Shown here piece by piece: positions 908 through 37,615 of a stretch of 37,615 bases of DNA. Below the pieces are notes generated by a model, which saw nothing but the letters and a program-made list of their open reading frames with translations, was not told where the DNA came from and ran no database searches. Each line of letters begins with the position of its first letter. Within the stretch, counting starts at the first letter, position 1. The translations under genes and the position numbers were made by a program. Location of the stretch: the IMG/VR virus record IMGVR_UViG_2681813321_000019. The stretch is one strand, 5' to 3'. This DNA comes from a virus. Lineage: Duplodnaviria; Heunggongvirae; Uroviricota; Caudoviricetes.

Positions 908-961
908 TGCAGAAATAACGAGCAAATGGCATCATTCCTGCTTTTGTCAGGGAGATCTACC

Positions 962-1516
962 ATGCTTATTGGCTATGTACGTGTGTCAACAAATGACCAG
1001 AACACAGATCTACAACGTAATGCGCTGAACTGTGCAGGATGCGAGCTGATTTTTGAAGACAAGATAAGCGGTACAAAGTCCGAAAGGCCGGGACTGAAAA
1101 AACTGCTCAGGACATTATCGGCAGGCGATACGCTGGTGGTCTGGAAACTGGACCGACTGGGGCGCAGTATGCGGCATCTTGTCGTGCTGGTGGAGGAGTT
1201 GCGCGAACGAGGCATCAACTTTCGTAGTCTGACGGATTCAATTGATACCAGTACCCCAATGGGGCGCTTTTTCTTTCATGTGATGGGGGCCCTGGCTGAA
1301 ATGGAACGAGAACTGATTGTTGAACGAACAAAAGCTGGACTGGAAGCTGCTCGCGCACAGGGACGAATTGGTGGACGTCGTCCCAAACTTACACCAGAAC
1401 AATGGGCACAAGCCGGACGATTAATTGCATCAGGAGTTCCGCGCCAGAAAGTTGCGATTATCTATGATGTTGGCGTATCGACTTTGTATCAGAGGTTTCC
1501 GGCAGGAGATAAATAA
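962..1516 (+). CDS. pin: Serine DNA invertase, Pin/Gin/Hin/Cin family (184 aa from MLIGYVRVSTNDQ)
   Basis: N-terminal MLIGYVRVSTNDQ with catalytic Ser in RVSTNDQ, resolvase core, C-terminal HTH (VAIIYDVGVSTLYQRF); GGGAGA RBS upstream of the ATG at 962. ORF-track start at 926 rejected. Confidence 0.9.
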   Translation: MLIGYVRVSTNDQNTDLQRNALNCAGCELIFEDKISGTKSERPGLKKLLRTLSAGDTLVVWKLDRLGRSMRHLVVLVEELRERGINFRSLTDSIDTSTPMGRFFFHVMGALAEMERELIVERTKAGLEAARAQGRIGGRRPKLTPEQWAQAGRLIASGVPRQKVAIIYDVGVSTLYQRFPAGDK

Positions 1517-8736: not shown

Positions 8737-8790
8737 TGCAGAAATAACGAGCAAATGGCATCATTCCTGCTTTTGTCAGGGAGATCTACC

Positions 8791-9345
8791 ATGCTTATTG
8801 GCTATGTACGTGTGTCAACAAATGACCAGAACACAGATCTACAACGTAATGCGCTGAACTGTGCAGGATGCGAGCTGATTTTTGAAGACAAGATAAGCGG
8901 TACAAAGTCCGAAAGGCCGGGACTGAAAAAACTGCTCAGGACATTATCGGCAGGCGATACGCTGGTGGTCTGGAAACTGGACCGACTGGGGCGCAGTATG
9001 CGGCATCTTGTCGTGCTGGTGGAGGAGTTGCGCGAACGAGGCATCAACTTTCGTAGTCTGACGGATTCAATTGATACCAGTACCCCAATGGGGCGCTTTT
9101 TCTTTCATGTGATGGGGGCCCTGGCTGAAATGGAACGAGAACTGATTGTTGAACGAACAAAAGCTGGACTGGAAGCTGCTCGCGCACAGGGACGAATTGG
9201 TGGACGTCGTCCCAAACTTACACCAGAACAATGGGCACAAGCCGGACGATTAATTGCATCAGGAGTTCCGCGCCAGAAAGTTGCGATTATCTATGATGTT
9301 GGCGTATCGACTTTGTATCAGAGGTTTCCGGCAGGAGATAAATAA
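8791..9345 (+). CDS. pin: Serine DNA invertase Pin (copy B)
   Basis: Identical to 962..1516. Confidence 0.9.
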   Translation: MLIGYVRVSTNDQNTDLQRNALNCAGCELIFEDKISGTKSERPGLKKLLRTLSAGDTLVVWKLDRLGRSMRHLVVLVEELRERGINFRSLTDSIDTSTPMGRFFFHVMGALAEMERELIVERTKAGLEAARAQGRIGGRRPKLTPEQWAQAGRLIASGVPRQKVAIIYDVGVSTLYQRFPAGDK

Positions 9346-12537: not shown

Positions 12538-12668
12538 AAGCGTCGTGAATCATCGGTAATCTGAAATCGAAAACACCCCATATCAATCCTGCGGGGGACA
12601 AGGCTCTATCTTAGCATGAACCCGATGTTACCCAGCGCCGGGATAGCGTTTTTTTTACAGCAGGATAA

Positions 12669-13425: not shown

Positions 13426-13486
13426 CAGACAGAAAAAAGGTGCTCATTGAGCACCTTTTTTAACGTCTTTGAGAGCAACTTTATTA

Positions 13487-13828
13487 TTAGTTACCACTCA
13501 GCGCAGGTTTGTTATCAATATTGGTCAACACACCGCTACTGTTAAAGGTCAGCGTCAGCGTTTGCTGCGTTACACCTTCATGACCTGGTTGCTGGCGGAA
13601 GACATAGAACCAGGTATTCGTACCAAATGGATCGGACATCAGCGGTGTACCCAATGCGTACGCAACTTGTTGTTGCGTCATGCCAACACGTATTTTGGAT
13701 ACGTCGTTAGCGGTCAGATAGTTCCCCTGGTTGATGTCAGGACGGTAAACCACTCGCTCCAGAGTGGAACAGCCTGCGGTCAACATCAATAGTACTGCTG
13801 CTGCAGCAGTCAGCGTTTTACAGCGCAT
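13487..13828 (-). CDS. bamE: BamE (copy B)
   Basis: Identical to 5658..5999. Confidence 0.9.
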
Positions 13829-13976
13829 AGTGATTTGATTCCTTTTCGGGCCCGAGCAGTACGTGGCTCATCTGTAATATGCCGATGATAATAGACCTTT
13901 CATCACTTTAAAACCTTTTGCTTTCCGGTCTTACGGCGTTTTGCTGTTTACTCTGACCGTGAAGCAGGAAAAAAGT

Positions 13977-15638
13977 TTACGCTGCAAGCAGTTCTTTCGC
14001 ATTCGCCAGTGTATTACGTGTGACTTCACTGCCACCAAGCAGGCGCGCCAGCTCTTGTAACCGCGCTTTTTTATTCAGGGATTGCATATGCGTTTCTGTC
14101 ATCGCACCATCGGTTTCTTTGCTGACAAAATAGTGTTGATGACCACATCCCGCGACTTGTGGCAGGTGGGTAACACACATCACCTGAGTTGATTCGCCGA
14201 GTTGACGCAGCAGTTTGCCGACAACTGCCGCTGTTGGACCGCTAATCCCTACATCCACTTCATCAAAAATCAGTGCCGGGGTTTCCATTTTACGCGCCGT
14301 GATGACCTGGATTGCCAGTGCGATGCGGGACAATTCACCACCGGATGCGACTTTGGCAATAGGCTGCATTGGCTGACCTGGGTTGGTGGTTACCCGAAAC
14401 TCAATACGATCGGCACCGTCAGCGCCCAGGTGATGCTCGTCAAATTTAACATCGATCGTAAACTGCCCATGCGGCATTGAGAGCGCATGCATACTGTCGG
14501 TGATCAGCTGTGCAAGTTCTTCTGCATATTGCTGGCGTTGTTGGTGTAATGCGCGCGCGATTTCCAGTGCCTGCTGATGATGTTTCGTTACCGCCAGCGC
14601 AAGCGTTTCTTGTGAGTCGGCCTGATCGTCCAGTTGCTGCTGTTCTTCCAGTAGCGACTGGTAATACTGTGGCAATGCCTCAGGGCTGACGTGATGTTTA
14701 CGTGCCAGCGAAATCTGTTTTGAGATGCGCTGTTCAAGTTCAAATAGTCGGTTGGGATCGAGATCCAGACGATCGCAGTAGTGGCGCAGTTCATCGCTGG
14801 CTTCAGCAATCTGGATGGTAGCTTCTTCCAGCATATCAAGTACGCCGGACAGTTTGCTGTCCATGCCAATCAATTCGCTCACCAGTTGTTTAGCCGTGTA
14901 AAGCTGACTTTGCAGGTTTGCGTCTTCACCGTCGGCCATTAATGCCAATGCATTCTGGCTGGTGGTCAGCAATTGACCGCTGTTCGCCAGACGTTTGTAC
15001 TCTTCGTCGATTTGTTCAAACTCTCCGGGCTGCGGATTAAATTCGTTAAGTTCTTTTAATTGGTATTGCAGCAGTTCCGCACGGGCAGCGCGTTCCTGAC
15101 TTAACTGTTGATGATGCGCGAGGTCACGGCAGCTTTGATGCCACAACTGATAACGTGCTGTCATTTCCTGGAGTAGAGAGGTTTCATTGGCATAGCCATC
15201 AAGCAGGAACTTTTGGTGCTCGGGTTTGGTGAGTAACTGATGAGCGTGCTGACCATGGATCTGAATCAGCAACTGACCCAGTTCGCGCAGTTGTGACAGA
15301 GGAACAGCTGTACCGTTGATGAAACCACGGGAGCGACCATCGCTGCTGATCACGCGACGAAGCAAACATTCATGCCCGTCTTCAAGCTGGTTTTCTTCCA
15401 GCCAGCGCAGAGCCGCTGGCGTATCTTTCAGAGAAAAACGGGCGCACAGGTCAGCGCGAGCAGCGCCGGTACGCACCATGTCGGCTTCAGCGCGACCACC
15501 GAGACAAAGACCGAGGGCATCTATTGCAATAGATTTACCCGCGCCGGTCTCGCCAGTTATTACGGTCATGCCGCTATGAAAATCAATCTCAAGCTCACGA
15601 ACGATAGCAAAGTTGCTGATGGTCAGTTGTGCCAACAT
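13977..15638 (-). CDS. recN: DNA repair protein RecN (553 aa, full length)
   Basis: [20 protein letters not shown]..., Walker [12 protein letters not shown]-like coiled coil. Confidence 0.95.
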
Positions 15639-16691: not shown

Positions 16692-17370
<679 letters not shown>

Positions 17371-17421
17371 TCACTTAACCCCATTTATGTCGGTTGAGGT
17401 TATAAGTCACGGAGACCAGAT

Positions 17422-17766
17422 ATGTCCTTAAAGTATGCACATGAAAAATTTCATACTGCAGTACTTACTCTTGCGGGCCATGGAAGTATTCAAGAACGCT
17501 TGATTAATTCGTATGTTTTTAGCCTTGGGCATCTTAAAACAGCCGATGATATTCCAAATGCCTTACAAAGCAGGTTCGATGAATTATGTAAGGAACTGAC
17601 TAAGTTTGATGCCACTGGCGATGAGGGGCGAGTTCAAGCAACAGTATCAAAACTTAACGATTTCGAGATCAATAAACTGATCGAAGATATTGTCAGTCTT
17701 AACGATGATATTTGCATGAAATTGGCTCTGACGGATGAGACTTACCAAGACATACACCAAAGTTAA
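17422..17766 (+). CDS. Hypothetical acidic 114-aa protein (copy C)
   Basis: Reverse complement of 2012..2356. Confidence 0.6.
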   Translation: MSLKYAHEKFHTAVLTLAGHGSIQERLINSYVFSLGHLKTADDIPNALQSRFDELCKELTKFDATGDEGRVQATVSKLNDFEINKLIEDIVSLNDDICMKLALTDETYQDIHQS

Positions 17767-17850
17767 TTGATTAAATTCAAAAAGTTAACGTTCAACCAGC
17801 CAGTTTTTGGCTGGTTTATTGTCTTATAATATTCTTGCTCGAATGATGCA

Positions 17851-18063
17851 CTATTTATGATGTAATCCGGACATCAGTTCATGGACAAGATTATCTCTTT
17901 CATTGTGTTGCAACCGTAAATGCATAGCAAAAAGGTGAGCACTATCCTCATTCCTCTTCAAGCCATGCTGTTCAAGATACCCGAAAAAACGGCTTCTCTT
18001 ATCCGCTATTTCCTGAGTCTGACGTGCAACATTTACCAAATTTTCTAGCGTTTTTCTTGGCAT
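17851..18063 (-). CDS. Hypothetical 70-aa protein (copy C)
   Basis: Reverse complement of 1715..1927. Confidence 0.5.
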   Translation of the reverse strand: MPRKTLENLVNVARQTQEIADKRSRFFGYLEQHGLKRNEDSAHLFAMHLRLQHNERDNLVHELMSGLHHK

Positions 18064-18261
18064 ACTATTTCCTCCTGAAATTGTTGTAATTCACTAGGAT
18101 ATTCATTTTAATTTGTATCATTTAGTACCAAAACCGCTATCAATTAATAAAGCCATCGTTGTGGTTTACCTTGCAGCCGTTTTTTGTCATTGACTCTATG
18201 TGAAAATAATGAATCATCATGAGATTGGCTCACACGTTCTTGAATTCGACGAGCTGTGTCT

Positions 18262-18816
18262 TTATTTATCTCCTGCCGGAAACCTCTGATACAAAGTCGA
18301 TACGCCAACATCATAGATAATCGCAACTTTCTGGCGCGGAACTCCTGATGCAATTAATCGTCCGGCTTGTGCCCATTGTTCTGGTGTAAGTTTGGGACGA
18401 CGTCCACCAATTCGTCCCTGTGCGCGAGCAGCTTCCAGTCCAGCTTTTGTTCGTTCAACAATCAGTTCTCGTTCCATTTCAGCCAGGGCCCCCATCACAT
18501 GAAAGAAAAAGCGCCCCATTGGGGTACTGGTATCAATTGAATCCGTCAGACTACGAAAGTTGATGCCTCGTTCGCGCAACTCCTCCACCAGCACGACAAG
18601 ATGCCGCATACTGCGCCCCAGTCGGTCCAGTTTCCAGACCACCAGCGTATCGCCTGCCGATAATGTCCTGAGCAGTTTTTTCAGTCCCGGCCTTTCGGAC
18701 TTTGTACCGCTTATCTTGTCTTCAAAAATCAGCTCGCATCCTGCACAGTTCAGCGCATTACGTTGTAGATCTGTGTTCTGGTCATTTGTTGACACACGTA
18801 CATAGCCAATAAGCAT
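18262..18816 (-). CDS. pin: Serine DNA invertase Pin (copy C)
   Basis: Reverse complement of 962..1516. Confidence 0.9.
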   Translation of the reverse strand: MLIGYVRVSTNDQNTDLQRNALNCAGCELIFEDKISGTKSERPGLKKLLRTLSAGDTLVVWKLDRLGRSMRHLVVLVEELRERGINFRSLTDSIDTSTPMGRFFFHVMGALAEMERELIVERTKAGLEAARAQGRIGGRRPKLTPEQWAQAGRLIASGVPRQKVAIIYDVGVSTLYQRFPAGDK

Positions 18817-18870
18817 GGTAGATCTCCCTGACAAAAGCAGGAATGATGCCATTTGCTCGTTATTTCTGCA

Positions 18871-18896
18871 TTTTCATAAACGTTGGTTTAAGAGCA
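18871..18896. promoter_or_regulatory. Pin-proximal crossover site (copy C)
   Basis: TTTTCATAAACG-TT-GGTTTAAGAGCA, reverse complement of 882..907. Confidence 0.6.
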
Positions 18897-19193
18897 AGCG
18901 GGCAGTACACCGATAATTTGTTATTTACAGGTCCTGATGGTCTTAAGATTCAGGTGTTTCGCCGGACGCTCGCAAATTTGACTACTGTCGGTGTAGTAAA
19001 TTCTGTGCCAGTGACTTTCCCTGTCCCGTTCCCTGTTAATTGCTGGGGCGTTTTTTCTACCAAATTAACATGGGTTCAGATAACTAACTCATGCGAGTGG
19101 GTAAGCAATACAGGATTTACCGCTCAGGTCATGATGAATATTGCTGTAAATACAAACACCTCAGACGCTATGTTTTTAGCTATAGGATATTAA
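18885..19193 (+). CDS. Sv' alternative tail-fibre C-terminal cassette (silent orientation)
   Basis: Reverse complement of 585..893. Confidence 0.55.
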   Translation, partial: GLRASGQYTDNLLFTGPDGLKIQVFRRTLANLTTVGVVNSVPVTFPVPFPVNCWGVFSTKLTWVQITNSCEWVSNTGFTAQVMMNIAVNTNTSDAMFLAIGY

Positions 19194-19194
19194 T

Positions 19195-19635
19195 ATGAAT
19201 CGTTTTGTGTTCAGTCCATCTGAGTCCCGTTTTTATGCCATCGAGTGGCAGGCTGATTATGTTGATAATAATTGTTGGCCACATGATGCCATTAACGTTA
19301 GTGACAGTATTTATTATGAGTTTTCCGGCACTCCCCCTACAGGTAAGCAACTTATAACTTTAAATAACATGCCAGCATGGGGTGATATTCCTCCACCTAC
19401 ACGAGAAGAATTAATTGTCGCTGCTGATGTGGAGAAGCAAAAAAGAATAGATTTAGCCAATGATTACATGAACGGTAAGCAATGGCCTGGTAAAGCAGCT
19501 ATTGGTCGTCTGAAAGGTGGGGAACTGGCACAATATAATTTGTGGCTGGATTATCTGGACGCACTGGAGCTGGTCGATACCGCCAGTGCGCCAGATATTG
19601 AATGGCCTACGCCTCCGGCAGTTCAGGCAAGATGA
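19195..19635 (+). CDS. Alternative tail fibre assembly protein Tfa' (146 aa)
   Basis: Reverse complement of 143..583. Confidence 0.7.
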   Translation: MNRFVFSPSESRFYAIEWQADYVDNNCWPHDAINVSDSIYYEFSGTPPTGKQLITLNNMPAWGDIPPPTREELIVAADVEKQKRIDLANDYMNGKQWPGKAAIGRLKGGELAQYNLWLDYLDALELVDTASAPDIEWPTPPAVQAR

Positions 19636-20209
19636 CATCCGGCGCGGTGCTGGTATCTGTTGCCGTCACCGCGTCAATGTAATCCAGCACAGTGTTAAGG
19701 CTGGTTGTTTCTGCCTGCGTCAGTTTACGTCCGGCCTGCAATTTCAGCTGAATCAGACTGATTGAAGCCATTGCAGTATCAATCAGTGACTGGCGCTGTG
19801 CTTCTGCTGCATCTACTGCGGCGCTATGCTGTGCTTCGGTATCCGTCACCCATTTCTCACCATCCCATTTATCGTATGGCGTTAACGGGGCGATAGTGGT
19901 TGTATTATCAGGGTAATCACCCGGAGCTGTGATTTCTTTTGATTCTCCTGTTTCGGTGCTAAAGACGATTTCACCGCGATGGTCTGGCACATATTCCCAT
20001 GAGTTAAAATCTACAGATCGGCAGATTGCATAACCAGCTTTGTATGTGCCAGGGGCATCTAAACAGGAATATGCAGGGATACCGACACCAACGGCAAGAT
20101 ATTCAGTTGATGTGGAAATATATTCCCGTGTTTCGCCATCATAGTTATAGACGGTAATATTCCCCGCCTTTGTAGCAATAAACTCGCTATTTAATACAGC
20201 GTTATCCAT
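19607..20209 (-). CDS. tfa: Tail fibre assembly protein Tfa (200 aa), expressed orientation
   Basis: Start overlaps the S stop; conserved Tfa C-terminal domain. Confidence 0.8.
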   Translation of the reverse strand: MDNAVLNSEFIATKAGNITVYNYDGETREYISTSTEYLAVGVGIPAYSCLDAPGTYKAGYAICRSVDFNSWEYVPDHRGEIVFSTETGESKEITAPGDYPDNTTTIAPLTPYDKWDGEKWVTDTEAQHSAAVDAAEAQRQSLIDTAMASISLIQLKLQAGRKLTQAETTSLNTVLDYIDAVTATDTSTAPDVILPELPEA

Positions 20210-21000
20210 TATGCAGCCCTCACGATATAGTTAAATGCAATATTCCGTGGACGGGTTTCATTTATCCCATATGCTGTTGTTCTCTGATTCCCGACAAAAT
20301 ATCCATTTGGATTAGAAGATACATAATAATCATCAAAATCAAGTGGGCTATCAGCACCCGGCGTCAGGCTTGCAATATATCCTCTTCCCATAACTTCTGA
20401 TGCTGGTATTTCTTTTGTACGATAATCACTAACTCTGAAGAGCTGCCCTTGGTGGGTGTGTGATTCCACTCCTCCATTCTGAAGACTTAGCAAGGCACGT
20501 ACAGCATCAATACCACGCCCGTCATCCCAGCCACGAATAAACTCACCACGTAAATCAGGCAATTTATTTGTCGGATAAGCCTTTGCCAGTTCCGGGTATT
20601 CTTCAGCAGAAAAAGCGGCACCGTTGCATTTCAGCCAGCCTGTCGGCGGAGTGGCGGAAGGCCACGGAACAGGCACACCAACAGGTAATGCAGAGCCTTC
20701 TCCCAAACCAAGGTTTTCGAGAGCCGTTTTCACCGTGCCGTCCGATTTGATATCGCCAAACGGATTTTTGCGGCTTAACAGCAGCGCACGAAGCGCGGTA
20801 AGCAACTGGTCGTGCCGCCCTTTCTCCAGGCTGGCACCGGAGGCCTCCACAACGCTGCAAAGCTCCTCCTGCAACATGTCAAAGTAGTCATCATCCAGAT
20901 CGGTGGCAGGTGTGCCGGTCTGGGGGTTACCACGGGTAAAACCGTTCTTACCCGCGCCGAACTTATCCTTCTGCGCGGTTTTCGTGTCTATACGATGCAT
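20209..21000 (-). CDS. Tail fibre protein S (263 aa): constant N-terminal part fused at the crossover site to variable part Sv
   Basis: The crossover site (20698..20723) lies inside the ORF at ...[11 protein letters not shown]...; C-terminal HxH motif (GGVESHTHQ) typical of fibre tips; position after the Mu gp48-like gene. Confidence 0.8.
20698..20723. promoter_or_regulatory. S-internal crossover site; TTCTCCCAAACC-AA-GGTTTTCGAGAG
   Basis: 26-bp site with strong resemblance to hixL; inverted partner at 18871..18896. Confidence 0.6.
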
Positions 21001-28308: not shown

Positions 28309-28664
28309 TACTGGTAATCCCCTTCTTCACCGTGGAACTCAAGATCAACCGTCCCTTCTTCGGCATTATGGTTCGCTTCGCCGTGCAGCCAGGCAGACGA
28401 CAGTACATAGACCTGACCGTTCGCCAGCTCGGCAGTGATGGTCATCTCATCAGACGAGGTGATTTTGCTCACCGGAAAATTCTTCGGCACCTTGAAGGTC
28501 CCTTTAACATAAGGCGCACGGTGAGTTTCCTTGCGGTCCACTGAACCGTCCAGGCCGATGATGTCATCATTGACCGTCCTGTTCATGGGCACCTCAATGC
28601 CGCCGGTCAGCGATAGCTGCTGACCGTCAATTTTGAAATAACAGGTTCCCCCGATACGGGCCAT
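28308..28664 (-). CDS. Tail tube protein (118 aa)
   Basis: Immediately downstream of the sheath gene; size typical of contractile-tail tube proteins. Confidence 0.7.
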   Translation of the reverse strand: MARIGGTCYFKIDGQQLSLTGGIEVPMNRTVNDDIIGLDGSVDRKETHRAPYVKGTFKVPKNFPVSKITSSDEMTITAELANGQVYVLSSAWLHGEANHNAEEGTVDLEFHGEEGDYQ

Positions 28665-30160
28665 TATGAGGACTCCTCTGAATACTGAAGACGGAACTGG
28701 TTAACCACGGCAAAGACACGCAACTGGTTAACATAGTCAGGCGGGAACAGCGTGTTCAGGCGGTTCGGATCGCTGGCATCACGCTCCACAACCAGGTACT
28801 GCTTGAACAGTTCGTAGTTTTCCACGATCCCCGCACGCTCAAGCTGACGGTAGGTTGCCAGCAGTTCCCCTTTGATCACCGCCGGGGTGACAATCGCCTG
28901 ACCGGGACCAAAGCGGGTACCGTCGCTGGCAAGCTTGTGACGCCCGTACTTACTGGTAATGACGGATTTCAGTTTGCGCAGTACATACGCACTGGTATGC
29001 AGCGTCTCGCTGTCGAGGTAGCTGTTATCCGCAACCCCGTAAGCGTTTTTCCTGTACGTGGTGACATCACGCTGAATGCGTAGTACCCCGCTTTCGACAT
29101 ACGCCGTTGCCACGCCATGAGACAGCAGGGTCTGTTGTTCGGTCATCGTGAACCGTTTCCCCTTCGGCGCAGGCAGCATACCCACCAGCTCACCGGTCTG
29201 CGTGGGACGTGCCGGATCGTTGCGGATAAACACCGCTGCGCGGGCGGTACGGCTTGCCGCCAGCTCGTCGGCAGGCGTCTGGGTGTCTTTTTCGTACCCC
29301 GCCAGGGTAATGTGCTGCTGGTTAAAGTGGTCACCTGCGGTCACCAGTTCTGACAGCGTGCCGGTCTTTGCCGTATACACATGACCATACAGCTGACGCG
29401 CATAGCTCCAGCGACCGCTGGTATCGTTCATCTCGGTCACCAGCGTGTTAACGGAGGCCGTGTCGTTGAACGGCAGGCCAATATAATCAAACGGCTCATC
29501 CGCCATTGCAGCCACCGCGCCGGTGAGAACCGGAGCACCCGTTCCGGCGGTACCCGTCGCCACGGCAATCTGTACGCCCGCTGGCAGCACTTCGCCCCCA
29601 CCAAAGCCGTAGTAATTGAGGCTGACAGGAATTTCATTCCCGCAAAGCCCCTTATGACGCGCGGTCAGTGTGACCACGCCTGCCGAAGATGAAGCCGTAA
29701 ACGGCAGGGTCGGAACGGCATTGATGGCATCCTGGATACTGCTGGCAATCATCGTGACGTTATCGCCGTTAGTCACCGGTGCCTGCACGCGGGTACGTCC
29801 CACATACACATTCACCGTGCCGCTTTCGGTTGCCGCCCCGGTCACCGTCAGCGTAACCGTTGCCGCCGCGCCTGTGGATTCAGGAACGGCAATCACATAC
29901 AGCTCGCCAAACGGGTCAGTCTGGCGATAAGCCTCGACCATACGCGCCAGCTGACTTCCCGCACCACAAATCTGGCGTGCATAGTCTGCCGACGGCATCA
30001 GTACCAGACTGTTGGCAACAATCTCTGCACCGTTATTGGCATGACCAATCAGCAGCGATGCTCCGCTGTCCTGTGCAGTATTCGCCGCCTGGTTATCCAT
30101 TTCCGCATAAAACAACGGAACCAGCGTATTCGACGGAATGGTGTTAAAGCTTATCGTCAT
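28664..30160 (-). CDS. Tail sheath protein (498 aa)
   Basis: Size and position in the contractile tail module. Confidence 0.8.
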   Translation of the reverse strand: MTISFNTIPSNTLVPLFYAEMDNQAANTAQDSGASLLIGHANNGAEIVANSLVLMPSADYARQICGAGSQLARMVEAYRQTDPFGELYVIAVPESTGAAATVTLTVTGAATESGTVNVYVGRTRVQAPVTNGDNVTMIASSIQDAINAVPTLPFTASSSAGVVTLTARHKGLCGNEIPVSLNYYGFGGGEVLPAGVQIAVATGTAGTGAPVLTGAVAAMADEPFDYIGLPFNDTASVNTLVTEMNDTSGRWSYARQLYGHVYTAKTGTLSELVTAGDHFNQQHITLAGYEKDTQTPADELAASRTARAAVFIRNDPARPTQTGELVGMLPAPKGKRFTMTEQQTLLSHGVATAYVESGVLRIQRDVTTYRKNAYGVADNSYLDSETLHTSAYVLRKLKSVITSKYGRHKLASDGTRFGPGQAIVTPAVIKGELLATYRQLERAGIVENYELFKQYLVVERDASDPNRLNTLFPPDYVNQLRVFAVVNQFRLQYSEESS

Positions 30161-30314
30161 CGGTATTCACCTTTTTATTCACGCGCCGGATATCACCCGC
30201 TGCTTCACGGCGCAGCCAGTAGTTGTTCTCGTCAACATTTCGCCCTTCGGCGGGCAAAAGGTCGCCGCGGGCAGGATCAGGAACTGACCGCCCTTTAACA
30301 GGTTTGACAAACAT
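30144..30314 (-). CDS. Small hypothetical protein (56 aa), not in the ORF track
   Basis: ATG at 30312..30314 (minus strand) to stop at 30144..30146; overlaps the sheath start by 17 nt. Confidence 0.3.
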   Translation of the reverse strand: MFVKPVKGRSVPDPARGDLLPAEGRNVDENNYWLRREAAGDIRRVNKKVNTDDDKL

Positions 30315-30322
30315 GAGGATCC

Positions 30323-30883
30323 TCAGGAAGGAAGGGTTATTTCGGTGTGATGTTCGATATCGCCGTCAGGCCCGTTACCGGGCTCGAGATAATCAACATC
30401 AATCGCCAGCGTTCGCAGTTCATCCAGACTGTTCAGATCATCCTGCTGGCGGGTATCGTCTTCAGTCAGCTCGCTGATGACCGAAAAATCGAACTGATAA
30501 ATCAGCTCATGACGATTCAGATCCAGCAGCGTGCCGCCGTCATAGGTAATCGGGTTACCGCACGCCTCCGGATTCCAGCCCAGCAGAGCCTTAAAGAGCA
30601 TCTGCCGGACATCGTCCACCACATCATACGAGGCAAACTGACCGCGCTCATCACGCCCGTTACTCAGTATGACAACCACGGAGAAGCCCTCTTTCAGCTC
30701 CTGCCAGTAGTCGGTCTGGCTTTTGTTTTCTCCCGGAGAATCATCCCCCGGTACCACATACGCCGCCGGGAGTCTCAGCTTTCCGACCTCCGGCAGATTT
30801 TTGAACTGTGCCGCGCCTGCCACCCGGTTTTCAAAATACGGGCAGCGGGCACGCAGCGCAGCAATAACAGGCGTCAGTTTCAT
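30323..30883 (-). CDS. Tail completion / head-tail joining protein, hypothetical (186 aa)
   Basis: Synteny between head and sheath genes. Confidence 0.4.
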   Translation of the reverse strand: MKLTPVIAALRARCPYFENRVAGAAQFKNLPEVGKLRLPAAYVVPGDDSPGENKSQTDYWQELKEGFSVVVILSNGRDERGQFASYDVVDDVRQMLFKALLGWNPEACGNPITYDGGTLLDLNRHELIYQFDFSVISELTEDDTRQQDDLNSLDELRTLAIDVDYLEPGNGPDGDIEHHTEITLPS

Positions 30884-31386
30884 CTGTGTCGTCGCTCCGG
30901 CTTCAGTGATTTACGTAATTCCCGCGCCAGAAAATAGCGTGTCCAGCTGCGGTTCTTTTCAAGCGTTTCCACCATAAAGTTATTACGTGGAGCCAGCCGC
31001 CAGCCGCTGCCACCGGATGCACCACGATGATGGCTGCGACGACGCTTTGCCCCTCGCCTCACGCCATAGAACAAAAAAGCCGGATAAAAATCACCGGTGA
31101 TGCGGCGGTTTCCCTCACCATTACGCTGGTTAGGGGCTATACGTGCCATAAAACCGGGGCGATGTTTACTGGCTCTGGGTACCATATAACCAATCGAACG
31201 TGCCAGGCGTCCGGTCTGATAACCGGGGTTTTCACCCGGTGCCGACCGCGCACGGCGCATCACCAGCCGACGGGCATCACGCATATGACGCTGACCAATC
31301 GTGACAAACGCCCGCCGGACACGGGCGCGGTTAAAGCGCATCTCCGCGGGCTGCTGAAAATCAACGTGCAAAAAGGAAGTCGCCAT
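30880..31386 (-). CDS. Virion morphogenesis protein (HK97 gp10-like or Mu G-like), 168 aa
   Basis: Arg-rich; position in the head-tail joining cluster. Confidence 0.4.
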   Translation of the reverse strand: MATSFLHVDFQQPAEMRFNRARVRRAFVTIGQRHMRDARRLVMRRARSAPGENPGYQTGRLARSIGYMVPRASKHRPGFMARIAPNQRNGEGNRRITGDFYPAFLFYGVRRGAKRRRSHHRGASGGSGWRLAPRNNFMVETLEKNRSWTRYFLARELRKSLKPERRHR

Positions 31387-31771
31387 TGCTGCCTCCGTGA
31401 CTCTGCGTAAATTCGCCCAGTTCCGTACACTCCAGCAGCAGAAAGCGCCGCGCCCCGTTCAGATCGCGCTGACGTTTCACCCGGTACACACTGTCACCGC
31501 AGACCACCTCATAATCAGCGGTGATCCCCCGGCGGTAGCGAATGGTGATGTAATGGGTGATGGCGTCCCCGGTCTGCGCGGTTTCCTGCCAGGTGGTGGC
31601 ACTGGTCTGGATAACCTTCGCCCATGCCCGGAACGCAACCGGGTATTGAGGCTCCACGCCAAAGTTATCCGCGGGCATATCCACCCGCTGGCGGATCAGG
31701 ACGCGTTTATTCAGTTCGCCGGGGTCCGGCAGAATGTAGGTTGCGCTGGTCTGCGCCTGACGAATTTTCAT
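31361..31771 (-). CDS. Head closure / head-tail adaptor protein (136 aa)
   Basis: Synteny downstream of the gp6-like connector. Confidence 0.45.
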   Translation of the reverse strand: MKIRQAQTSATYILPDPGELNKRVLIRQRVDMPADNFGVEPQYPVAFRAWAKVIQTSATTWQETAQTGDAITHYITIRYRRGITADYEVVCGDSVYRVKRQRDLNGARRFLLLECTELGEFTQSHGGSNGDFLFAR

Positions 31772-32172
31772 AGTGGTATAAGGCGATAAGGAGCAACCAA
31801 CCAGTTAAAACTCATTGGCAACTCCATTTTCTCAACGTCTGTAACCGTTGAGCGGTTTTCGTAGAAATGGCTGACAAGTAGCAGAAGCGCCAGCTTCACA
31901 TCATCAGATATCACAAGCCCATCAGGATCATCCGCAGGCCTGTCATCTGCGGTTGCATACAACGTACGGTTAAGGAAGTTTTCCGTTCGACTCTGAGCGG
32001 CCTTACCAAGCAGTTCAAGCAACTCATCTTCATCAGAGAAATCATCATCCAGACGGAGCTGAAGCTTAATCTCTTCCATTTTTAACAGCATAAAACCTCC
32101 TGTGCCCGCCAGAACGCGGGCACAAAAAAACCGCATTACGCGGCGTGCTGTATTACGTAAAAGACTAATCAA
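31768..32172 (-). CDS. gp6-like head-tail connector protein (134 aa ORF; true start possibly the internal MLLKMEEIKLQLRLDDD)
   Basis: EEIKLQLRLDDDFSDEDELLELL motif typical of the gp6 connector family; directly after the major capsid gene. Confidence 0.55.
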   Translation of the reverse strand: MISLLRNTARRVMRFFCARVLAGTGGFMLLKMEEIKLQLRLDDDFSDEDELLELLGKAAQSRTENFLNRTLYATADDRPADDPDGLVISDDVKLALLLLVSHFYENRSTVTDVEKMELPMSFNWLVAPYRLIPL

Positions 32173-33398
32173 CCACCAACGCTACCTTTCCCCACCAGCG
32201 CTTTAATGGCAGAGGTGTCTTCCAGGATACAGTCAAAACGATGGAAGGCCAGAAAACCGGTCTGATCATATTCCGCGTAACGCTCAACCAGACGTTTAAG
32301 AATCATGTATCGCACACGACGGATAATGAAGCGATCAAAGTCACCACAGAACATGAATTTTTTACCCGCCCCGATATCATCAATTTCCTGATCAATGACA
32401 TACGGTACATTCAACACTGAAGCAGGTGCCACACCAACAATATCCGGCAACCATAAAGGGCGTCCCTGACCGTCTTCCATCTCACTGATCAGTTTCAGCG
32501 TATTATCGTTAAACGCCAGGCGGAATTTCGGTCCGCGACGATATGCAGGATCAATGCTGTGTTTCAGAGCCAGAATTTCCTGCCACTTCACCGCATTTGC
32601 CGCGGCAGTCTGTGTTGTGCCGGTCACTGATGCTGCCAGCCCTTTGGGTTGTTTAGGCGTACCCGCACCAGTCCCCTGAATCAGATAACGGGCTTCACCA
32701 CGACCAATACGTTCAGCAATGCGACGGGCAAGATAAGCTTCCATATCGATCGCGCTGTCCTGCAGCAACTCATTAGACACACGAATGATTTTCGATGTCA
32801 TTTTGAGCGCCCCAAGGCTCCCCATACCGAAATCGGTGTCTTCTTCACCGGCTTCTTCATTTTCGCCCAGCAGAACACCAACTTCGGAAGTACCATCAGC
32901 TGTTGCCCACTCCATAGTGCGACCATCTGAAGTGGTCAGAATCTGCGCCACACTGGCGATGCCACCGTAGGATTTCATCTTCTCAACAACTTTCGCCAGG
33001 AATGTTTCTGGTACGGTATATCCGCCCTTTTCATCCTGAGCTACACCCTGGGCACGAAGTTCACGCAACGCCTTTCGTTCTTCTGATGTCAGCTCACTGG
33101 CACCGTGACGCATCCACTTATCAAAAACCTGAGCTCGTTTCTCATCCTGTTGTGGATTGTTTTCCGGATCAAGATTCTGACGCTGCTCTTCCTCATTGCT
33201 TTCAATGTACGCCTGATCCTGACGACGCAGTTCTTCTTCGCGTGCAATTCGTTCATCAAGCGCTTCCAGTTCGGATTTTGCTTTGTTCCACTCAGTGCGC
33301 TGCTCTTCCGTCCATGCGTTATCACCAATTTTTTCATTCAGGGCGCGCATGTCAGTTGCGATAGTATTACGTTTCTGTTTCAGTTCATGCAGTTTCAT
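32169..33398 (-). CDS. Major capsid protein, HK97 family (409 aa)
   Basis: N-terminal delta-domain-like coiled coil followed by HK97-fold region; downstream of the prohead protease. Confidence 0.85.
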   Translation of the reverse strand: MKLHELKQKRNTIATDMRALNEKIGDNAWTEEQRTEWNKAKSELEALDERIAREEELRRQDQAYIESNEEEQRQNLDPENNPQQDEKRAQVFDKWMRHGASELTSEERKALRELRAQGVAQDEKGGYTVPETFLAKVVEKMKSYGGIASVAQILTTSDGRTMEWATADGTSEVGVLLGENEEAGEEDTDFGMGSLGALKMTSKIIRVSNELLQDSAIDMEAYLARRIAERIGRGEARYLIQGTGAGTPKQPKGLAASVTGTTQTAAANAVKWQEILALKHSIDPAYRRGPKFRLAFNDNTLKLISEMEDGQGRPLWLPDIVGVAPASVLNVPYVIDQEIDDIGAGKKFMFCGDFDRFIIRRVRYMILKRLVERYAEYDQTGFLAFHRFDCILEDTSAIKALVGKGSVGG

Positions 33399-33408
33399 GA
33401 TGTTTCCT

Positions 33409-34026
33409 TTACGCGTTAAGAAGGGTCAGGACGCGTTCACGCGCCATACGTTGATTAATGGCTTTCTGTAGCGCGCCGCTGTTGCGCGCCTCCTGCCATG
33501 CTTTCATGGAGCGAACAGCCGAGTCAGCCTCCTGATAGGCAGGATATGTCACAGGACTGACATCCAGCAGACGGGAAAAGCGGGTTATCTCGCGAATAAC
33601 AACCCCATCCTCATCCTGATACCACTCCTCACCGTCACGGGCGACACGGAAAGCGAAAGATGACTGGTTAATATCTCCACGTTGCATCGGGGCCAGCACC
33701 AGATCACGAATGGTCTGTGTCTCCGGAGCCTGGATGTCATAGCGTAATCCGCGCTCATCAACTGAAAGATTCAGCGTGCCTGCTGCACTACGCCCAAGAA
33801 TAAAATTAGGATCGTGGTTAAACAGTGCGCGTACATCATCACCAAGCACATCGTCAAAAGCGCCGGGCCGGATGATTTCGCGGAATGAACCGAATATCAG
33901 CTCAGAACGACAGTCAAACACCGATCCATAACCGATAATGTGCGCCGGGTTATCGTCATGCCTCTCAGCACGCACCTCACCGCTGTAACAACGGATTTCA
34001 CGGTCATTCATTGGTTTTTCCCTCAT
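33409..34026 (-). CDS. Prohead protease, HK97 family (205 aa)
   Basis: Position between portal and capsid; conserved His/Ser-containing segments. Confidence 0.8.
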   Translation of the reverse strand: MREKPMNDREIRCYSGEVRAERHDDNPAHIIGYGSVFDCRSELIFGSFREIIRPGAFDDVLGDDVRALFNHDPNFILGRSAAGTLNLSVDERGLRYDIQAPETQTIRDLVLAPMQRGDINQSSFAFRVARDGEEWYQDEDGVVIREITRFSRLLDVSPVTYPAYQEADSAVRSMKAWQEARNSGALQKAINQRMARERVLTLLNA

Positions 34027-35278
34027 CGTTTTTTGGGGGCTTAAAATCTCCTGCCGGGTTAGCAGCGTTCACGCTTACCAGCATCTCATCCAGCCCTTCA
34101 ACCGGATTCATATCCTCGAATGCGCGGGCCTCATTACGGCTCATCCATCCATCGGTAATAGCGAAGTGATAGAATTGCGCGCGCTCCTGCGGAGTTCCGC
34201 GTAAAAGCCCCGTCAGATTGAACCTGACGTAATACCCGGCGGCTAACTCAGCGCGGGTAAACAAGCGACGGTTAAGCTCCTGCTCCCAGTTCGTCACCCA
34301 CGGCATCATCGTGTAGCGGACAAACTGAATCGCCTGCGCAGAAATATTGGAGAAGGTGGCTTTTTCGAGGTCATTAATCATGTGCGCAGGAATATTGAAA
34401 ATACCGGCGATCATTGAACGGTTCAGCTTCATCATGTCAATGATCTGAGCGTCAACTGGCGACACAGTCAGTGCCTTGTAATCCAGATCGGCTGGCAGCA
34501 GCATGGTTTTGTTTTCCTGGCGGCGTAACGCCTGCGATGCCTTCTGCCACTGATCTTTAAGCCAGCCCCAGCTTTCCTTATTGAGTCCGCTTTTAACGGA
34601 TACTATCCCCGCCGGACGGGCATTACCGCTGAAGAAGCTTTCTGTGTACTTCTGACCGCTCATCCCCATGCCTATTGTTTCGGCATGTTGCATAATCGGA
34701 CTCAGCCCCATCTTCTGATTATTACCCAGCGCACGGATGTGGATCATATCGTCCGGACTGATCGCAAACGCCCCATATTCGTTGTACAAACCGTAGGTAT
34801 ATCGGCCACCAGTATTCATCAGCGTCGTTTCCCACGGCATACAGCAATCCAGGGATATGACTTCACCGCGACGATTACGTTTCACCCAGGTATACCCATT
34901 CCCCCAGCCAAGGATGTGACGTTGCTTCAGTTCGCGCCATTTGTAGCTGGTTTGCCAGGTATTGGGCTCATCATGAACCAGATAAAACGCAGGATGATCG
35001 CGTGCGGGTTCAACCTTCCCCTTGTGCCTGCGCATAACATGCAACGGCATCTGGGCAAGGCTGGAAGACAGGACATAGATACAGGAATACACCGCAGCCA
35101 GTTTCATCGCAGTCTCAGGACTGACATAAACGTCTGCCCGGAACAGCCCATCAGTATCAACGGCATCCCCGGTTATCGGGGTGGAAGGATTCTCCAGTGA
35201 TTTACTTCTGAACAGAGCATCAAGCAGCACGCGTCCCCCTTCTGGCCATAGCCAGTGCGCCCACCAGCAGTAAAGCAC
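34004..35278 (-). CDS. Portal protein, HK97 family (424 aa; start uncertain)
   Basis: Size and position between large terminase and protease. Confidence 0.8.
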   Translation of the reverse strand: MLYCWWAHWLWPEGGRVLLDALFRSKSLENPSTPITGDAVDTDGLFRADVYVSPETAMKLAAVYSCIYVLSSSLAQMPLHVMRRHKGKVEPARDHPAFYLVHDEPNTWQTSYKWRELKQRHILGWGNGYTWVKRNRRGEVISLDCCMPWETTLMNTGGRYTYGLYNEYGAFAISPDDMIHIRALGNNQKMGLSPIMQHAETIGMGMSGQKYTESFFSGNARPAGIVSVKSGLNKESWGWLKDQWQKASQALRRQENKTMLLPADLDYKALTVSPVDAQIIDMMKLNRSMIAGIFNIPAHMINDLEKATFSNISAQAIQFVRYTMMPWVTNWEQELNRRLFTRAELAAGYYVRFNLTGLLRGTPQERAQFYHFAITDGWMSRNEARAFEDMNPVEGLDEMLVSVNAANPAGDFKPPKNDEGKTNE

Positions 35279-35381
35279 CGGACAAAATCAGAGCCGGAGC
35301 CATACCAAACTGCAGGTAAACCCCGCACGTAAGCAGGCCAAAACCAGCCAGCCCGATAACATCAGCAATTAGTGATTTCAT
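35220..35381 (-). CDS. Small hydrophobic protein (53 aa, two predicted TM helices), not in the ORF track
   Basis: [53 protein letters not shown]; lies between terminase and portal and overlaps the annotated portal N-terminus. Confidence 0.3.
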
Positions 35382-37111
35382 AGAATTAAGAGATCATCGT
35401 CCGGATCAAGAGATGAGAGGAAATCGTCAGGTTCTTTGAGCATTGCCCGACCGATCGTCATAATCAGTGCAACCGCACCATCGATTTTGTTTTCCGTCTG
35501 CTCCTTGACGGGCTTCACTAAATCATCGTTACCTGGCATGTTTTTGCCGACCACATTGCCGATACACCAGGTCATGATGGGATTGCCGTCATGATGAAAG
35601 CGTCCCGATTCAATCGCTGCTTCCAGCTCTTTCATCGGATCGGACATATTGGCGAAGTTCTGGACGATAGTGACGGGATTCAGATCTTCATCAGCAAGGT
35701 CATGCGACAGCCCGGTCGCCCCGAAGGGGTCGATGGGTGACTCACTGACCGGGCTGATTTTGTTCGCCGCTTTGGCCTCCTCGAGGATGTAGCGATAATC
35801 CACCTCTGCACCATCGGTAACGGTCAGGACGCCCATTTCCACCCATTTCTGAAAGCGTTCGGCTGTCCGTCTATCTTCATTTTTCTCGACGCTGTACACC
35901 GTGTCATACGGTACCCAGAAGCGCGGGGCCACACTGTAGTAATGCGTTTTACCGTCAATCTCGCGGGTATAAAGTCGCGCCATGCTGTTCATATCCAGCT
36001 TACGCGCCAGGTCAAAGGCCAGAATGCACGGCTGCCCCTCGAACTGCTCAAGGGTCAGTGATTTATCCTCGCAGCTCTGCCAGCTCACCAGGTTGAAATA
36101 CGCCGAACGCGCCGACACCCAGATATTGAGGTGTTTTGTTTTAAAGACGTTTGCCAGACGGGCGTTATTTTTCGCACGCTGCTGCTGACTTAACAAAAAT
36201 TCGCGATAAACCGACACGCCAATATTTGGATTGGCTTTTTCCAGCACCTGCGGGTCGGTCCAGTCGTCACCTTCATCAACGGTATAGATGATCCCGAACA
36301 GTTCATCGTTAGGCACCGAGCCGTTGAGCATCTCGATGACTTCCCGCCGCTTGTCGTAGCACGGCCCCTCAATGTTGTACCCGGCGGTGGTGATGGCCCA
36401 CATCAGTGGCTGACGTCGCGCCCCCATCCCGGTAAGCATTGTGGTATAAAGCGCATCGGTGGCATGCTCGTGATATTCATCAACCACGGCACAGTGGGGT
36501 GATGAACCATCACCGGGGTTACCGATCAGCGGTTCAAACCGCGCGCCATCCTCCGGACGGTTCATGTTTGAAGCGTTAACCTCAATCCCGAACGCTTCCG
36601 TCAGCATGGGTGTGCGTTTACACATCAGTCGCGCCGGGCGAAAGACTTCCCACGCCTGTTTCTCTGTCGTGGCACCGGAATACACTTCCGCGCCAAACTC
36701 GTTATCACAGGCAAAACAATACAGGGCAACACCAGCAGAGATTGCTGATTTGCCGTTCTTACGGGGGATTTCGGTATACACCTCCCGGAAGCGGCGCAAC
36801 CGGGTGCCTTTATTGACCCAGCCAAACGCACAGCAGATCACAAATAGCTGCCACGGCTCCAGCGTGATGGGCATCCGTTTGAATGCCCACTCACCCTTGG
36901 TGTGCGGCAACAGCTGAATAAATTTCGCGGCCCGTTCAGCCAGGTCCTTGTCGAAGCGGTAACGAAACGACTTACTTTTTTCCGCCATCAGGTCATCAAG
37001 ATGGCGCTGGCAGGCCTGAATCACAAACTGGCAGGCCACAATCTTTCCGCGCACGACATCCCGGGCATACTGATTGGCAGCATTTACGTTGGGGTAAGAT
37101 TTCCTGCTCAT
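35378..37111 (-). CDS. Terminase large subunit (577 aa)
   Basis: N-terminal ATPase region and C-terminal nuclease region; follows the small terminase subunit. Confidence 0.85.
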
Positions 37112-37611
37112 GACTCGATGATTTTCAGAAACGGGTTAGTGGCTTTCTTCTGCCCCGCCAGGCCAATCAGACGCTGGCGGCTGCTGGGGTCGAGTCCGAG
37201 CATTGCCCCCGTGCTGCTCATCTCGGACTCCTGTTCTTTCTTGGCGGTCAGCTCCGGGTTTTTGACCATACCGCCCATTGCACCGGTAATGGTGTTGCCC
37301 TGGCTGGCAATATTTTTCACGGCACGTCGCCAGAACTCATAGGCCACGCACCACCGCTCAAGCACCGCGAGGTCAGTCACGCACAGCAGGCCCTGACCGC
37401 AGAGTTCTTTGGTTGTCAGTTGCCACATGATCGTGGCGAGAGGGAGATCTTCTTCAGCGAACCACTCCGGTGGCTCAACACCTTTGATGGGCGTAAAAAC
37501 AGGTTCATCTTTATTCAGGGCTCGCTTGCCGGGGTTTCCGGCCAGCGCCTTGCGCGCCGTTGGCTTGGGGCGACGCCCGGAACGCCCCGCCGTTCCAGCC
37601 ATATGCGGCAC
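37108..37611 (-). CDS. Terminase small subunit, P27 family (167 aa; start may be the second Met, [13 protein letters not shown])
   Basis: [15 protein letters not shown]-terminus characteristic of P27-type small terminases. Confidence 0.75.
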
Positions 37612-37615
37612 TCCT

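Follow-up and report, generated by a model that had tools for sequence, protein, structure and literature searches.

Two small late genes of an SfV-type prophage: a Mu gp38-like protein ahead of the tail sheath and a predicted membrane protein between terminase and portal

Introduction

In phage Mu, the small protein gp38 is encoded between the tail terminator (gp37, or K) and the tail sheath (gp39, or L). Mu-type tails conserve the DUF2635/Mu gp38 protein, near-atomic structures of the Mu virion have not assigned it a role, and no paper turned up when the literature was searched for DUF2635 and Mup38. In Shigella phage SfV, the corresponding gene, orf10, has been annotated since 2002 as "similar to Mu GP38."

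Several small proteins offer points of comparison for the head region. In phage T4, gp40 is a membrane-associated helper of portal (gp20) initiation. In phage HK97, gp15 is a superinfection-exclusion moron that lies in the tail region, has its own promoter, and is expressed from the prophage. Exclusion proteins and class II holins share an architecture of two helices and a basic tail. A hydrophobic protein encoded between the terminase large subunit (TerL) and the portal, at the 5′ end of an alternative head cassette, is named Sb3 in ST64B, SfII_03 in SfII, and "putative integral membrane protein" in phiP27. We know of no evidence that HK97-type proheads assemble on a membrane, and the literature, searched for a membrane protein encoded between terminase and portal, offered nothing about what such a protein does.

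Here, we analyze a window of 37,615 nucleotides from a tailed phage (IMG/VR record IMGVR_UViG_2681813321_000019), the right end of which is 98.5% identical to SfV. A sequence-only reading had claimed two ORFs of fewer than 60 aa in its structural module, and both are present exactly as claimed, on the minus strand: a 56-aa ORF at 30144..30314 (ORF-A) and a 53-aa ORF at 35220..35381 (ORF-B). That reading described them as unannotated, which is correct for its own ORF track, from which they were missing only because the track stopped at 60 aa, but not for public records, where ORF-A is found in SfV and ORF-B in RefSeq Escherichia coli genomes. We are highly confident that ORF-A and ORF-B are authentic late genes of a prophage of the SfV type, ORF-A probably a tail-accessory gene and ORF-B a gene linked to the head module. 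As both genes were already in public databases, the outcome is an annotation correction and not a discovery.

Results

Both ORFs are conserved and evolve as coding sequences

Size alone gives neither ORF any significance, since 85 ORFs of at least 30 aa are listed in 8.6 kb; it is conservation that sets ORF-A and ORF-B above chance. Their conservation in relatives, proposed earlier as a check, is evident from matches to family HMMs, from purifying selection that is specific to the frame, and from the presence of an intact ORF-B in all 80 related viral contigs in IMG/VR, in 33 distinct protein variants. The pN/pS of ORF-A is 0.139 in frame, vs. 1.2-3.4 in shifted frames; the sheath and terminator genes have values of 0.14 and 0.27, respectively. 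For ORF-B, in-frame dN/dS is 0.13-0.36, with synonymous sites near saturation, while the other frames give values of about 1 or more, except for the antisense frame that shares wobble positions.

It is highly improbable that the two ORFs are untranslated and owe their conservation to overlapping signals, such as coupling spacing, RNA structure or the coding constraints of neighboring genes. Both are indeed short and overlap their neighbors, and ORF-B has no Shine-Dalgarno sequence of its own. However, a mere 11-17 nt of each ORF overlap another gene and, outside these overlaps, substitutions are mainly synonymous, with a pS of up to 0.73 against a pN of 0.16-0.29 for ORF-B, and a pS of 0.475 against a pN of 0.066 for ORF-A. 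Ratios of about 1 or more in the alternative frames speak against this explanation as well, as do the amino-acid motifs of the ORF-B family, kept at 30-40% identity across 214 clusters, and the confident AlphaFold2 models obtained for both proteins. Noncoding status was rejected for both ORFs on the frame-specific substitution patterns.

ORF-A lies between the tail terminator and sheath genes

The gene directly upstream of ORF-A encodes the tail terminator (30323..30883, minus strand; PF23840 Phage_tail_terminator, E 2e-26). ORF-A begins with an ATG located 8 nt past the terminator stop and preceded by a GAGGA Shine-Dalgarno sequence. At the other end, the overlap with the sheath start that had been claimed is borne out, the ATG (30160) of the sheath gene (28664..30160, minus strand; Pfam sheath domains, phrog_165) being 17 nt inside ORF-A. 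The resulting sheath N terminus, MTISFNTIPS, aligns with the start of the Mu sheath, MSDISFNAIPS, which according to the Mu record was confirmed by protein sequencing. ORF-A would thus be translationally coupled to the sheath gene; here, as for ORF-B, such coupling is putative and read off the overlaps.

Judged by its sequence, ORF-A is a member of the DUF2635/Mu gp38 family. It matches Pfam DUF2635 (PF10948) with 60.9 bits (cutoff 26.6, E 9.8e-17) over positions 1-45 of the 46-position model, for which Mu gp38 itself scores 78.9 bits, and it matches phrog_208 with an E of 3.6e-26. Identity is complete with SfV orf10 (100%) and falls to 42% with Mu gp38, and the order terminator–DUF2635 gene–sheath is alike in the window, SfV, SfII, F1055, and Mu. 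In an alignment of 32 sequences, the 13 invariant columns all fall in residues 1-36, and a conserved N-terminal domain of ~45 residues (MFVKP..GRsVPDPaRGdlLP.eGRnV....YW.RR...GD) is followed by a variable charged tail. The AlphaFold2 model of ORF-A (mean pLDDT 84.7) predicts a small β-β-β-α domain, with pLDDT above 90 at residues 1-40, and then a disordered charged tail, with pLDDT below 50 at residues 49-56. PDB sequence searches with both proteins and both family profiles returned nothing usable, the only match being a glycosyl hydrolase at E 1.2, and neither ORF has a match in NCBIfam or PADLOC.

We infer that ORF-A helps to assemble the tail or sheath without being part of the virion. A small soluble α/β domain with a charged tail, it would be an accessory factor of tail assembly, in sheath polymerization or termination, and would not remain as an ordered part of the finished virion. 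Its Mu homolog is not resolved in near-atomic maps of the virion and, in the 3.4-3.5 Å maps of the terminator–tail region, gp37 alone caps the tube and the sheath (PMC11915804). In phage 7-7-1, gp125 is a positional and fold analog of ORF-A, although the link is weak (hhalign probability 11%, E 0.0028); it is not among the 24 proteins of the virion proteome, which did contain gp124, gp126, and gp127 flanking gp125, plus a 3.2-kDa protein (PMC3517404). These two observations, together with the lack of a PDB relative of ORF-A among solved myophage necks, weigh against a different and somewhat doubtful reading, in which ORF-A is a true virion component and, as a "sheath terminator" or neck protein that is flexible or present in few copies, joins the tail terminator in capping the sheath. 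In favor of the latter, the curated Mu GenBank record gives gp38 the name "putative sheath terminator protein," a label that implies a place in the virion, the slot between terminator and sheath is fixed from Mu to SfV, and the authors of the Mu cryo-EM study place gp38 among "probably structural proteins" (PMC11915804). Nondetection of gp38 by cryo-EM, or of gp125 by mass spectrometry, is not proof of absence.

ORF-B overlaps both of its neighbors, and the portal starts 16 codons later than annotated

ORF-B (35220..35381, minus strand) follows the TerL gene (35378..37111, minus strand; Pfam TerL_ATPase and TerL_nuclease), its start ATG sharing the sequence ATGA (35378-35381) with the TerL stop TGA. 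As had been noticed, its 3′ end overlaps the annotated N terminus of the portal, covering 59 nt of the longest portal ORF, which begins at GTG 35278. This position is merely the longest-ORF start. Homologs of this HK97-family portal (PF04860) all share the N-terminal consensus M-(L/F)-(L/F)-x-x-(L/I/M)-F-(R/Q), even the SfII/ST64B portals, which are only 28% identical, and this consensus lines up with GTG 35230 (MLLDALFRS). In the Klebsiella, 733R5, and F1055 homologs, there are stop codons in the portal frame just upstream of the start, which is an ATG. Moreover, phrog_12 matches the long ORF only from residue 18 onward, and the portal called by PGAP in E. coli is 1227 nt long. The portal gene is therefore 34004..35230 (minus strand), with its corrected start at GTG 35230-35228, and 35231..35278 is a spurious N-terminal extension of 16 codons whose frame is not conserved. 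The same extension is carried by the SfV records, in which the portal is 1275 nt long.

The sequence-only reading had suspected a misplaced portal start, and the homolog alignment, upstream stops, and PGAP call agree that the annotated start is 16 codons too early. The finding it had named as counting against this, portal homologs aligning across the region, does not refute it, since no homolog aligns across 35231..35278. ORF-B thus ends 11 nt inside the true portal gene. A Shine-Dalgarno-like element, AGAAGGGGGA (35234..35243, minus strand), can be read within ORF-B 3 nt upstream of the portal GTG, and the equivalent elements in the Klebsiella and F1055 homologs are GAGGGGGA and AGGAGA. Overlap of its start with the TerL stop suggests that ORF-B would be made by termination-reinitiation at that stop; with the portal Shine-Dalgarno inside ORF-B and the 11-nt overlap, it further implies that translation is probably coupled all the way from TerL through ORF-B to the portal.

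ORF-B belongs to the phrog_7105 family (E 3.2e-22, residues 1-52 on model positions 1-52 of 52). In E. coli, PGAP annotates it as a hypothetical protein, WP_000838376.1, encoded by a 162-nt gene, and counterparts are annotated in RefSeq E. coli genomes and several phage records, while the SfV reference records (U82619, NC_003444) omit it and draw the portal over its region. The phrog_7105/WP_000838376.1 genes of E. coli, Klebsiella, and Edwardsiella phages resemble ORF-B in encoding 51-53 aa, in sharing ATGA with TerL, and in overlapping the portal by 11 nt. An exhaustive profile search delineated a phrog_7105-type family of 214 clusters at 50% identity, almost all of 45-80 aa, which no Pfam or NCBIfam model matches. 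A search of IMG/VR for the gene context of two single distant members gave no confirmed loci.

The same reading had offered, as its other explanation, that the head module harbors a small membrane protein. A two-helix hairpin is predicted by AlphaFold2 as well as by hydropathy: the model (pLDDT 87.5) has helices at residues 2-25 and 27-48, and Kyte-Doolittle segments in ORF-B homologs agree with it. As a predicted pair of transmembrane helices folded back on each other, ORF-B would probably have its N and C termini in the cytoplasm. Its Asp7 is invariant, its glycines follow a conserved pattern, and its C-terminal tail is basic. A misplaced portal start and a predicted membrane protein within the head module both hold and are mutually compatible.

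ORF-B moves with the head cassette

ORF-B is found directly between the TerL stop and the portal start in the window, in all 80 IMG/VR loci, and in 48 of 49 genome loci. Its 11-nt overlap with the portal is kept in 78 of the 80 IMG/VR loci. The genome loci are prophages of Gamma- and Betaproteobacteria with portals at least 57% identical, and ORF-B is intact in the same 48, their hosts including Enterobacterales, Halomonas, Marinobacter, Pseudomonas, Achromobacter, and Cupriavidus. The related prophage without it, from Pandoraea (L145), indicates that ORF-B may be dispensable. Judged by phage names (e.g., vB_EcoS-733R5), ORF-B occurs with both myovirus and siphovirus tails.

When the window is compared by blastn with SfII and ST64B, similarity ends at 32092 and returns at 35439, and most E. 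coli TerL matches end near 35456. This delimits an exchangeable head cassette (32093..35438, minus strand) that comprises the last ~20 codons of TerL, ORF-B, portal, protease, and major capsid protein. ORF-B is genetically part of the portal-protease-capsid cassette and moves with it.

Discussion

The two ORFs are conserved, coding, and assigned to families, with defined positions and overlaps, and the portal has a corrected start. They illustrate how a 60-aa floor in ORF tracks hides real phage genes, and how longest-ORF start calling over-extends the portal by 16 codons, in the window as in the SfV reference records. Biologically, they offer a modest lead and do not overturn current understanding. 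ORF-B in particular represents a family that moves with the head cassette and has neither a Pfam model nor a solved structure.

By inference, ORF-B would be an accessory protein of the head module that is made late and resides in the inner membrane. Our preferred guess, drawn from analogy, is that it might help portal/prohead initiation, or packaging, at the membrane, as is thought for T4 gp40. A membrane protein that aids portal/prohead initiation would suit the tight linkage of ORF-B to the portal and their apparent coupling, but T4 gp40 has no sequence or structural relation to ORF-B, and the likeness is one of analogy only. That phages of Proteobacteria use the ~50-aa TerL-portal membrane protein as an unrecognized but conserved part of HK97-type head morphogenesis or DNA packaging, for example to hold the portal or packaging motor at the inner membrane or to nucleate it there, is, in our estimation, clearly unlikely; were it so, head assembly in these phages would have a membrane-associated step.

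Alternatively, ORF-B could be a host-interaction gene that rides passively in the head operon, like HK97 gp15, and blocks superinfection, times lysis or changes the membrane. We view this as possible but on balance doubtful. The protein is small, two-helix, and membrane-type, with a basic tail; PHROGs places the possibly related phrog_502 in "moron, auxiliary metabolic gene and host takeover"; one related prophage (L145) lacks the gene; and its dN/dS indicates selection somewhat looser than on TerL (0.07) or portal (0.125). HK97 gp15, too, is a small inner-membrane protein encoded within a structural operon, in an HK97-like phage. Unlike HK97 gp15, however, ORF-B overlaps both neighbors (by ATGA and by 11 nt), and is thus apparently read as part of the late operon, promoter- and terminator-like sites there occurring only at chance level. 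Its GC content (0.549, vs. 0.52-0.54 in neighboring genes) is typical of the module, and its near-universal retention (80/80 and 48/49, with portals down to 57% identity) differs from that of patchy morons. A moron identity was rejected on these grounds, i.e., no promoter or terminator signals, typical GC, and near-constant retention. Regarding lysis, a prophage that is 99.9% identical over an 801-nt TerL/ORF-B/portal query, with gene order alike, carries a complete lysis cassette (two holin-family genes, a GH19 endolysin, and a spanin) upstream of its terminase genes. This cassette elsewhere, and the lack of a Pfam or NCBIfam holin match for ORF-B, led us to reject a holin (class II or pinholin); nor does ORF-B have a PADLOC match. 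The data are compatible with a role of ORF-B in head assembly and with one in lysis timing, exclusion or another membrane process.

Sb3 (phrog_502), a distinct 60-aa two-helix protein, occupies the slot of ORF-B in the alternative cassette of SfII and ST64B. ORF-B matches phrog_502 with an E of 5.7e-6, while in reverse Sb3 matches phrog_7105 with an E of 0.055, values that are ambiguous given the compositional bias of membrane proteins. Against the ORF-B HMM, Sb3 scores 13.4 bits, above all 500 of 500 composition-matched shuffles (maximum 8.8), but the hhalign probability is 4%. Sb3 does not have the N-terminal K-x-L-x-x-D motif of ORF-B, its polar tail is longer, and its partner portal is only 28% identical to the portal beside ORF-B. 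On this sequence comparison, Sb3/phrog_502 may be a remote relative of ORF-B.

For ORF-A, the comparison with Mu gp38 is much closer. The two proteins have in common their size class and their slot between tail terminator and sheath. They differ in the overlap with the sheath gene, which is 4 nt in Mu and 17 nt for ORF-A, and in their C-terminal charged tails; otherwise, nothing substantive sets them apart.

Two small ORFs in the structural module

As proposed in the sequence-only reading, the window contains two minus-strand ORFs of fewer than 60 aa, ORF-A (30144..30314; 56 aa) and ORF-B (35220..35381; 53 aa), and a 60-aa cutoff is the sole cause of their absence from the ORF track. Since ORFs this short are frequent by chance, with 85 of at least 30 aa listed within 8.6 kb, the case for both hinges on conservation. 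Shigella flexneri phage SfV is 98.5% identical to window 28600-37615 over its whole length. Judged by their sequences, both ORFs are protein-coding genes. The finding is ordinary, ORF-A having been in reference phage annotation since 2002 and ORF-B being already in PGAP and PHROGs; what interest remains lies in two small, well-conserved proteins, both from a common phage type.

ORF-A belongs to the DUF2635/Mu gp38 family

ORF-A starts 8 nt past the stop of the upstream tail-terminator gene (30323..30883; Pfam PF23840), is preceded by a GAGGA Shine-Dalgarno (SD) sequence and runs 17 nt into the tail sheath gene (28664..30160). It is orf10 in both SfV records, described as "similar to phage Mu GP38" in GenBank and as "DUF2635 domain-containing protein" in RefSeq. 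Its matches to Pfam DUF2635 (60.9 bits, for a cutoff of 26.6) and phrog_208 identify it as a member of the DUF2635/Mu gp38 family, and DUF2635 is the name of nearly all of the 125 clusters retrieved by database search. Mu gp38, which is 42% identical to ORF-A, is placed between gp37 (terminator) and gp39 (sheath). A 32-member family alignment has 13 invariant positions, all in residues 1-36, followed by a variable charged tail. Compared with phage F1055, ORF-A has an in-frame pN/pS of 0.139, against 1.2-3.4 in the other frames; the values for the neighboring sheath and terminator genes are 0.14 and 0.27, respectively.

AlphaFold2 models ORF-A with confidence (pLDDT 84.7) as a small beta-beta-beta-alpha domain, for which no relatives were found in the PDB. 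Among viral proteins, the fold of ORF-A is best matched (Foldseek probability 1.00, E 0.017) by an uncharacterized 68-aa protein from Agrobacterium phage 7-7-1, which appears, by its length, to be gp125. The 68-aa gp125 is encoded directly upstream of the 7-7-1 sheath gene (6733-6939 in the 7-7-1 sequence, L169), resembles the ORF-A family faintly at the profile level (hhalign E 0.0028) and has no DUF2635 match in Pfam. Judging by gp125, the gp38-like slot may reach past the current Pfam family.

As for function, the Mu GenBank record labels gp38 "putative sheath terminator protein," and in the Mu virion the tube and sheath are both capped by gp37 alone (PMC11915804). The same 2025 near-atomic study could not resolve gp38 (PMC11915804), while 24 proteins were identified by mass spectrometry in 7-7-1 virions, among them the neighbors gp124, gp126, and gp127 along with one of as little as 3.2 kDa, but not gp125 (PMC3517404). 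On this indirect evidence, we lean toward ORF-A acting transiently as a factor in tail or sheath assembly without being retained in the virion, a reading that we consider an even bet. That ORF-A is a minor virion part we regard as less likely.

ORF-B and the start of the portal gene

The ATG of ORF-B overlaps the stop of TerL (terminase large subunit; 35378..37111) as ATGA, and it has no SD sequence of its own. The longest possible portal ORF (start GTG 35278) covers the last 59 nt of ORF-B. The SfV records leave ORF-B unannotated and draw the portal as this longest ORF, of 1275 nt. The PGAP annotation of an E. coli chromosome with 99.9% identity over an 801-nt TerL/ORF-B/portal query has a 1227-nt portal gene and, overlapping it by 11 nt, a hypothetical protein of 162 nt (WP_000838376.1). 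A counterpart is annotated in the same place in the records of phages Edwardsiella EPP-1, Klebsiella vB_VIPKPNMC05, Escherichia vB_EcoS-733R5, and Salmonella F1055.

Over its whole length, ORF-B is matched by phrog_7105 (E 3.2e-22); phrog_502, "membrane protein," gives a weak match (E 5.7e-6), and Pfam, NCBIfam, and PADLOC give none. In a codon-level comparison with three phage homologues, synonymous sites approach saturation and dN/dS is 0.13-0.36; ratios are ~1 or more in the other frames, the sole exception being the antisense frame sharing wobble positions. AlphaFold2 predicts a helical hairpin (helices 2-25 and 27-48; pLDDT 87.5). The shared pattern is x-x-L-x-D-x-x-G-L-x-G-F-G-x-L-x-x-G-x-Y-L-x-F-G ... 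A-L-x-x-x-G-x-L-L-L ... A-R, in which the Asp and one of the Gly residues never vary and a further three Gly positions are at least 90% conserved.

The overlap had suggested either a misplaced portal start or a small membrane protein in the head module, and both suggestions hold, ORF-B being a conserved predicted two-helix hairpin inside the head cassette. Every portal N terminus reads M-(L/F)-(L/F)-x-x-(L/I/M)-F-(R/Q), including SfII/ST64B portals at only 28% identity. The Klebsiella and 733R5 homologues have portal-frame stop codons just upstream of the ATG aligned with window GTG 35230, a position at which F1055 also has an ATG. Moreover, the phrog_12 match of the long portal ORF starts at residue 18, and an SD sequence, AGAAGGGGGA, lies within ORF-B 3 nt upstream of GTG 35230. 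Together, these findings indicate that the true portal gene is 34004..35230, that its 16-codon extension is an artefact of choosing the longest ORF and that the real ORF-B/portal overlap is 11 nt.

Other observations in the window

The longest-ORF call for the head-tail adaptor (31768-32172, minus strand) is 134 aa from a TTG, and annotated homologues have 324 nt (107 aa); this start is probably over-extended in the same way. The head-closure gene (31361-31771, minus strand) is an intact 136-aa ORF, annotated at 411 nt in E. coli by PGAP. Only 297 nt are annotated for SfV orf7 (head closure; 2862-3158 in the SfV reference, L001), leaving an unannotated gap before orf6; the old record probably has a wrong start site or an error in its sequence.

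Large perfect repeats lie in window 1-20716. Segment 889-7705 is a perfect direct repeat of 8718-15534 (100% identity, 6817 nt), 16826-19777 is the exact reverse complement of 1-2952, and 19694-20716 is 99.7% identical to 7707-8729. Besides serine DNA invertase copies (926..1516 and 8755..9345, plus strand; 18262..18852, minus strand), the repeated block contains genes for the tail-fibre C terminus and for tail-fibre assembly and, from the host, smpB, a ratA-like gene, and a recN fragment. Either an invertase has really rearranged or duplicated DNA where prophage and host meet, or the repeats are an assembly artefact produced by a population in which inversion states were mixed.

ORF-B is retained within an exchanged head cassette

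Conservation in related prophages, proposed as a check, is borne out for ORF-B. An intact 51-53 aa homologue is present in 80/80 IMG/VR contigs with portals 83-100% identical (33 distinct protein variants), overlapping the portal by 11 nt in 78 and by 4 nt in 2. In a one-genome-per-species collection, a homologue of 48-69 aa separates the TerL stop from the portal start in 48 of the 49 prophages whose portals share 57% identity or more, a Pandoraea prophage alone lacking one; hosts include Enterobacterales, Halomonas, Marinobacter, Salinicola, Cobetia, Neptuniibacter, Pseudomonas, Achromobacter, Cupriavidus, Alcaligenes, and others. More distant portal loci (31-38% identity) could be read upstream in six cases, two of which have a different small hydrophobic ORF in the slot. 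Searched exhaustively with a profile, 1.84 billion representatives yielded 214 ORF-B clusters, almost all of 45-80 aa.

Similarity to SfII and ST64B covers the tail and connector genes up to window 32092 and restarts at 35439 inside TerL, and the majority of E. coli TerL matches end near 35456. The exchanged head cassette (32093-35438) comprises the last ~20 TerL codons, ORF-B, portal, protease, and major capsid protein. It is swapped as a unit, with a recombination joint in TerL about 60 nt before the stop, and the flanking genes (TerS/TerL, connector/tail) are still 95-97% identical to SfII. The position of ORF-B in this cassette, its typical GC content (0.549), the lack of promoter or terminator signals above chance, and its occurrence with phages named as myoviruses and as siphoviruses argue against a classical moron and for an integral gene of the head cassette.

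ORF-B would be translated by reinitiation at the TerL stop, with coupled translation of the portal, and its product would insert in the inner membrane with both termini cytoplasmic, because its C-terminal tail is basic and its helices are joined by a short loop. There it would serve the head module; our preferred, if tentative, guess is that it takes part in a step associated with the membrane, either the initiation of the portal or prohead or packaging. An equally tentative rival is a late function in the host membrane, exclusion or lysis timing for example.

The Sb3 protein of ST64B scores 13.4 bits with the ORF-B HMM, above all 500 composition-matched shuffles (maximum 8.8), but the hhalign probability is only 4%, so homology is possible, though unproven. 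In the alternative cassette of SfII, ST64B, and phiP27, it is this different 60-aa two-helix protein, Sb3 or SfII_03 (phrog_502), that occupies the same slot.
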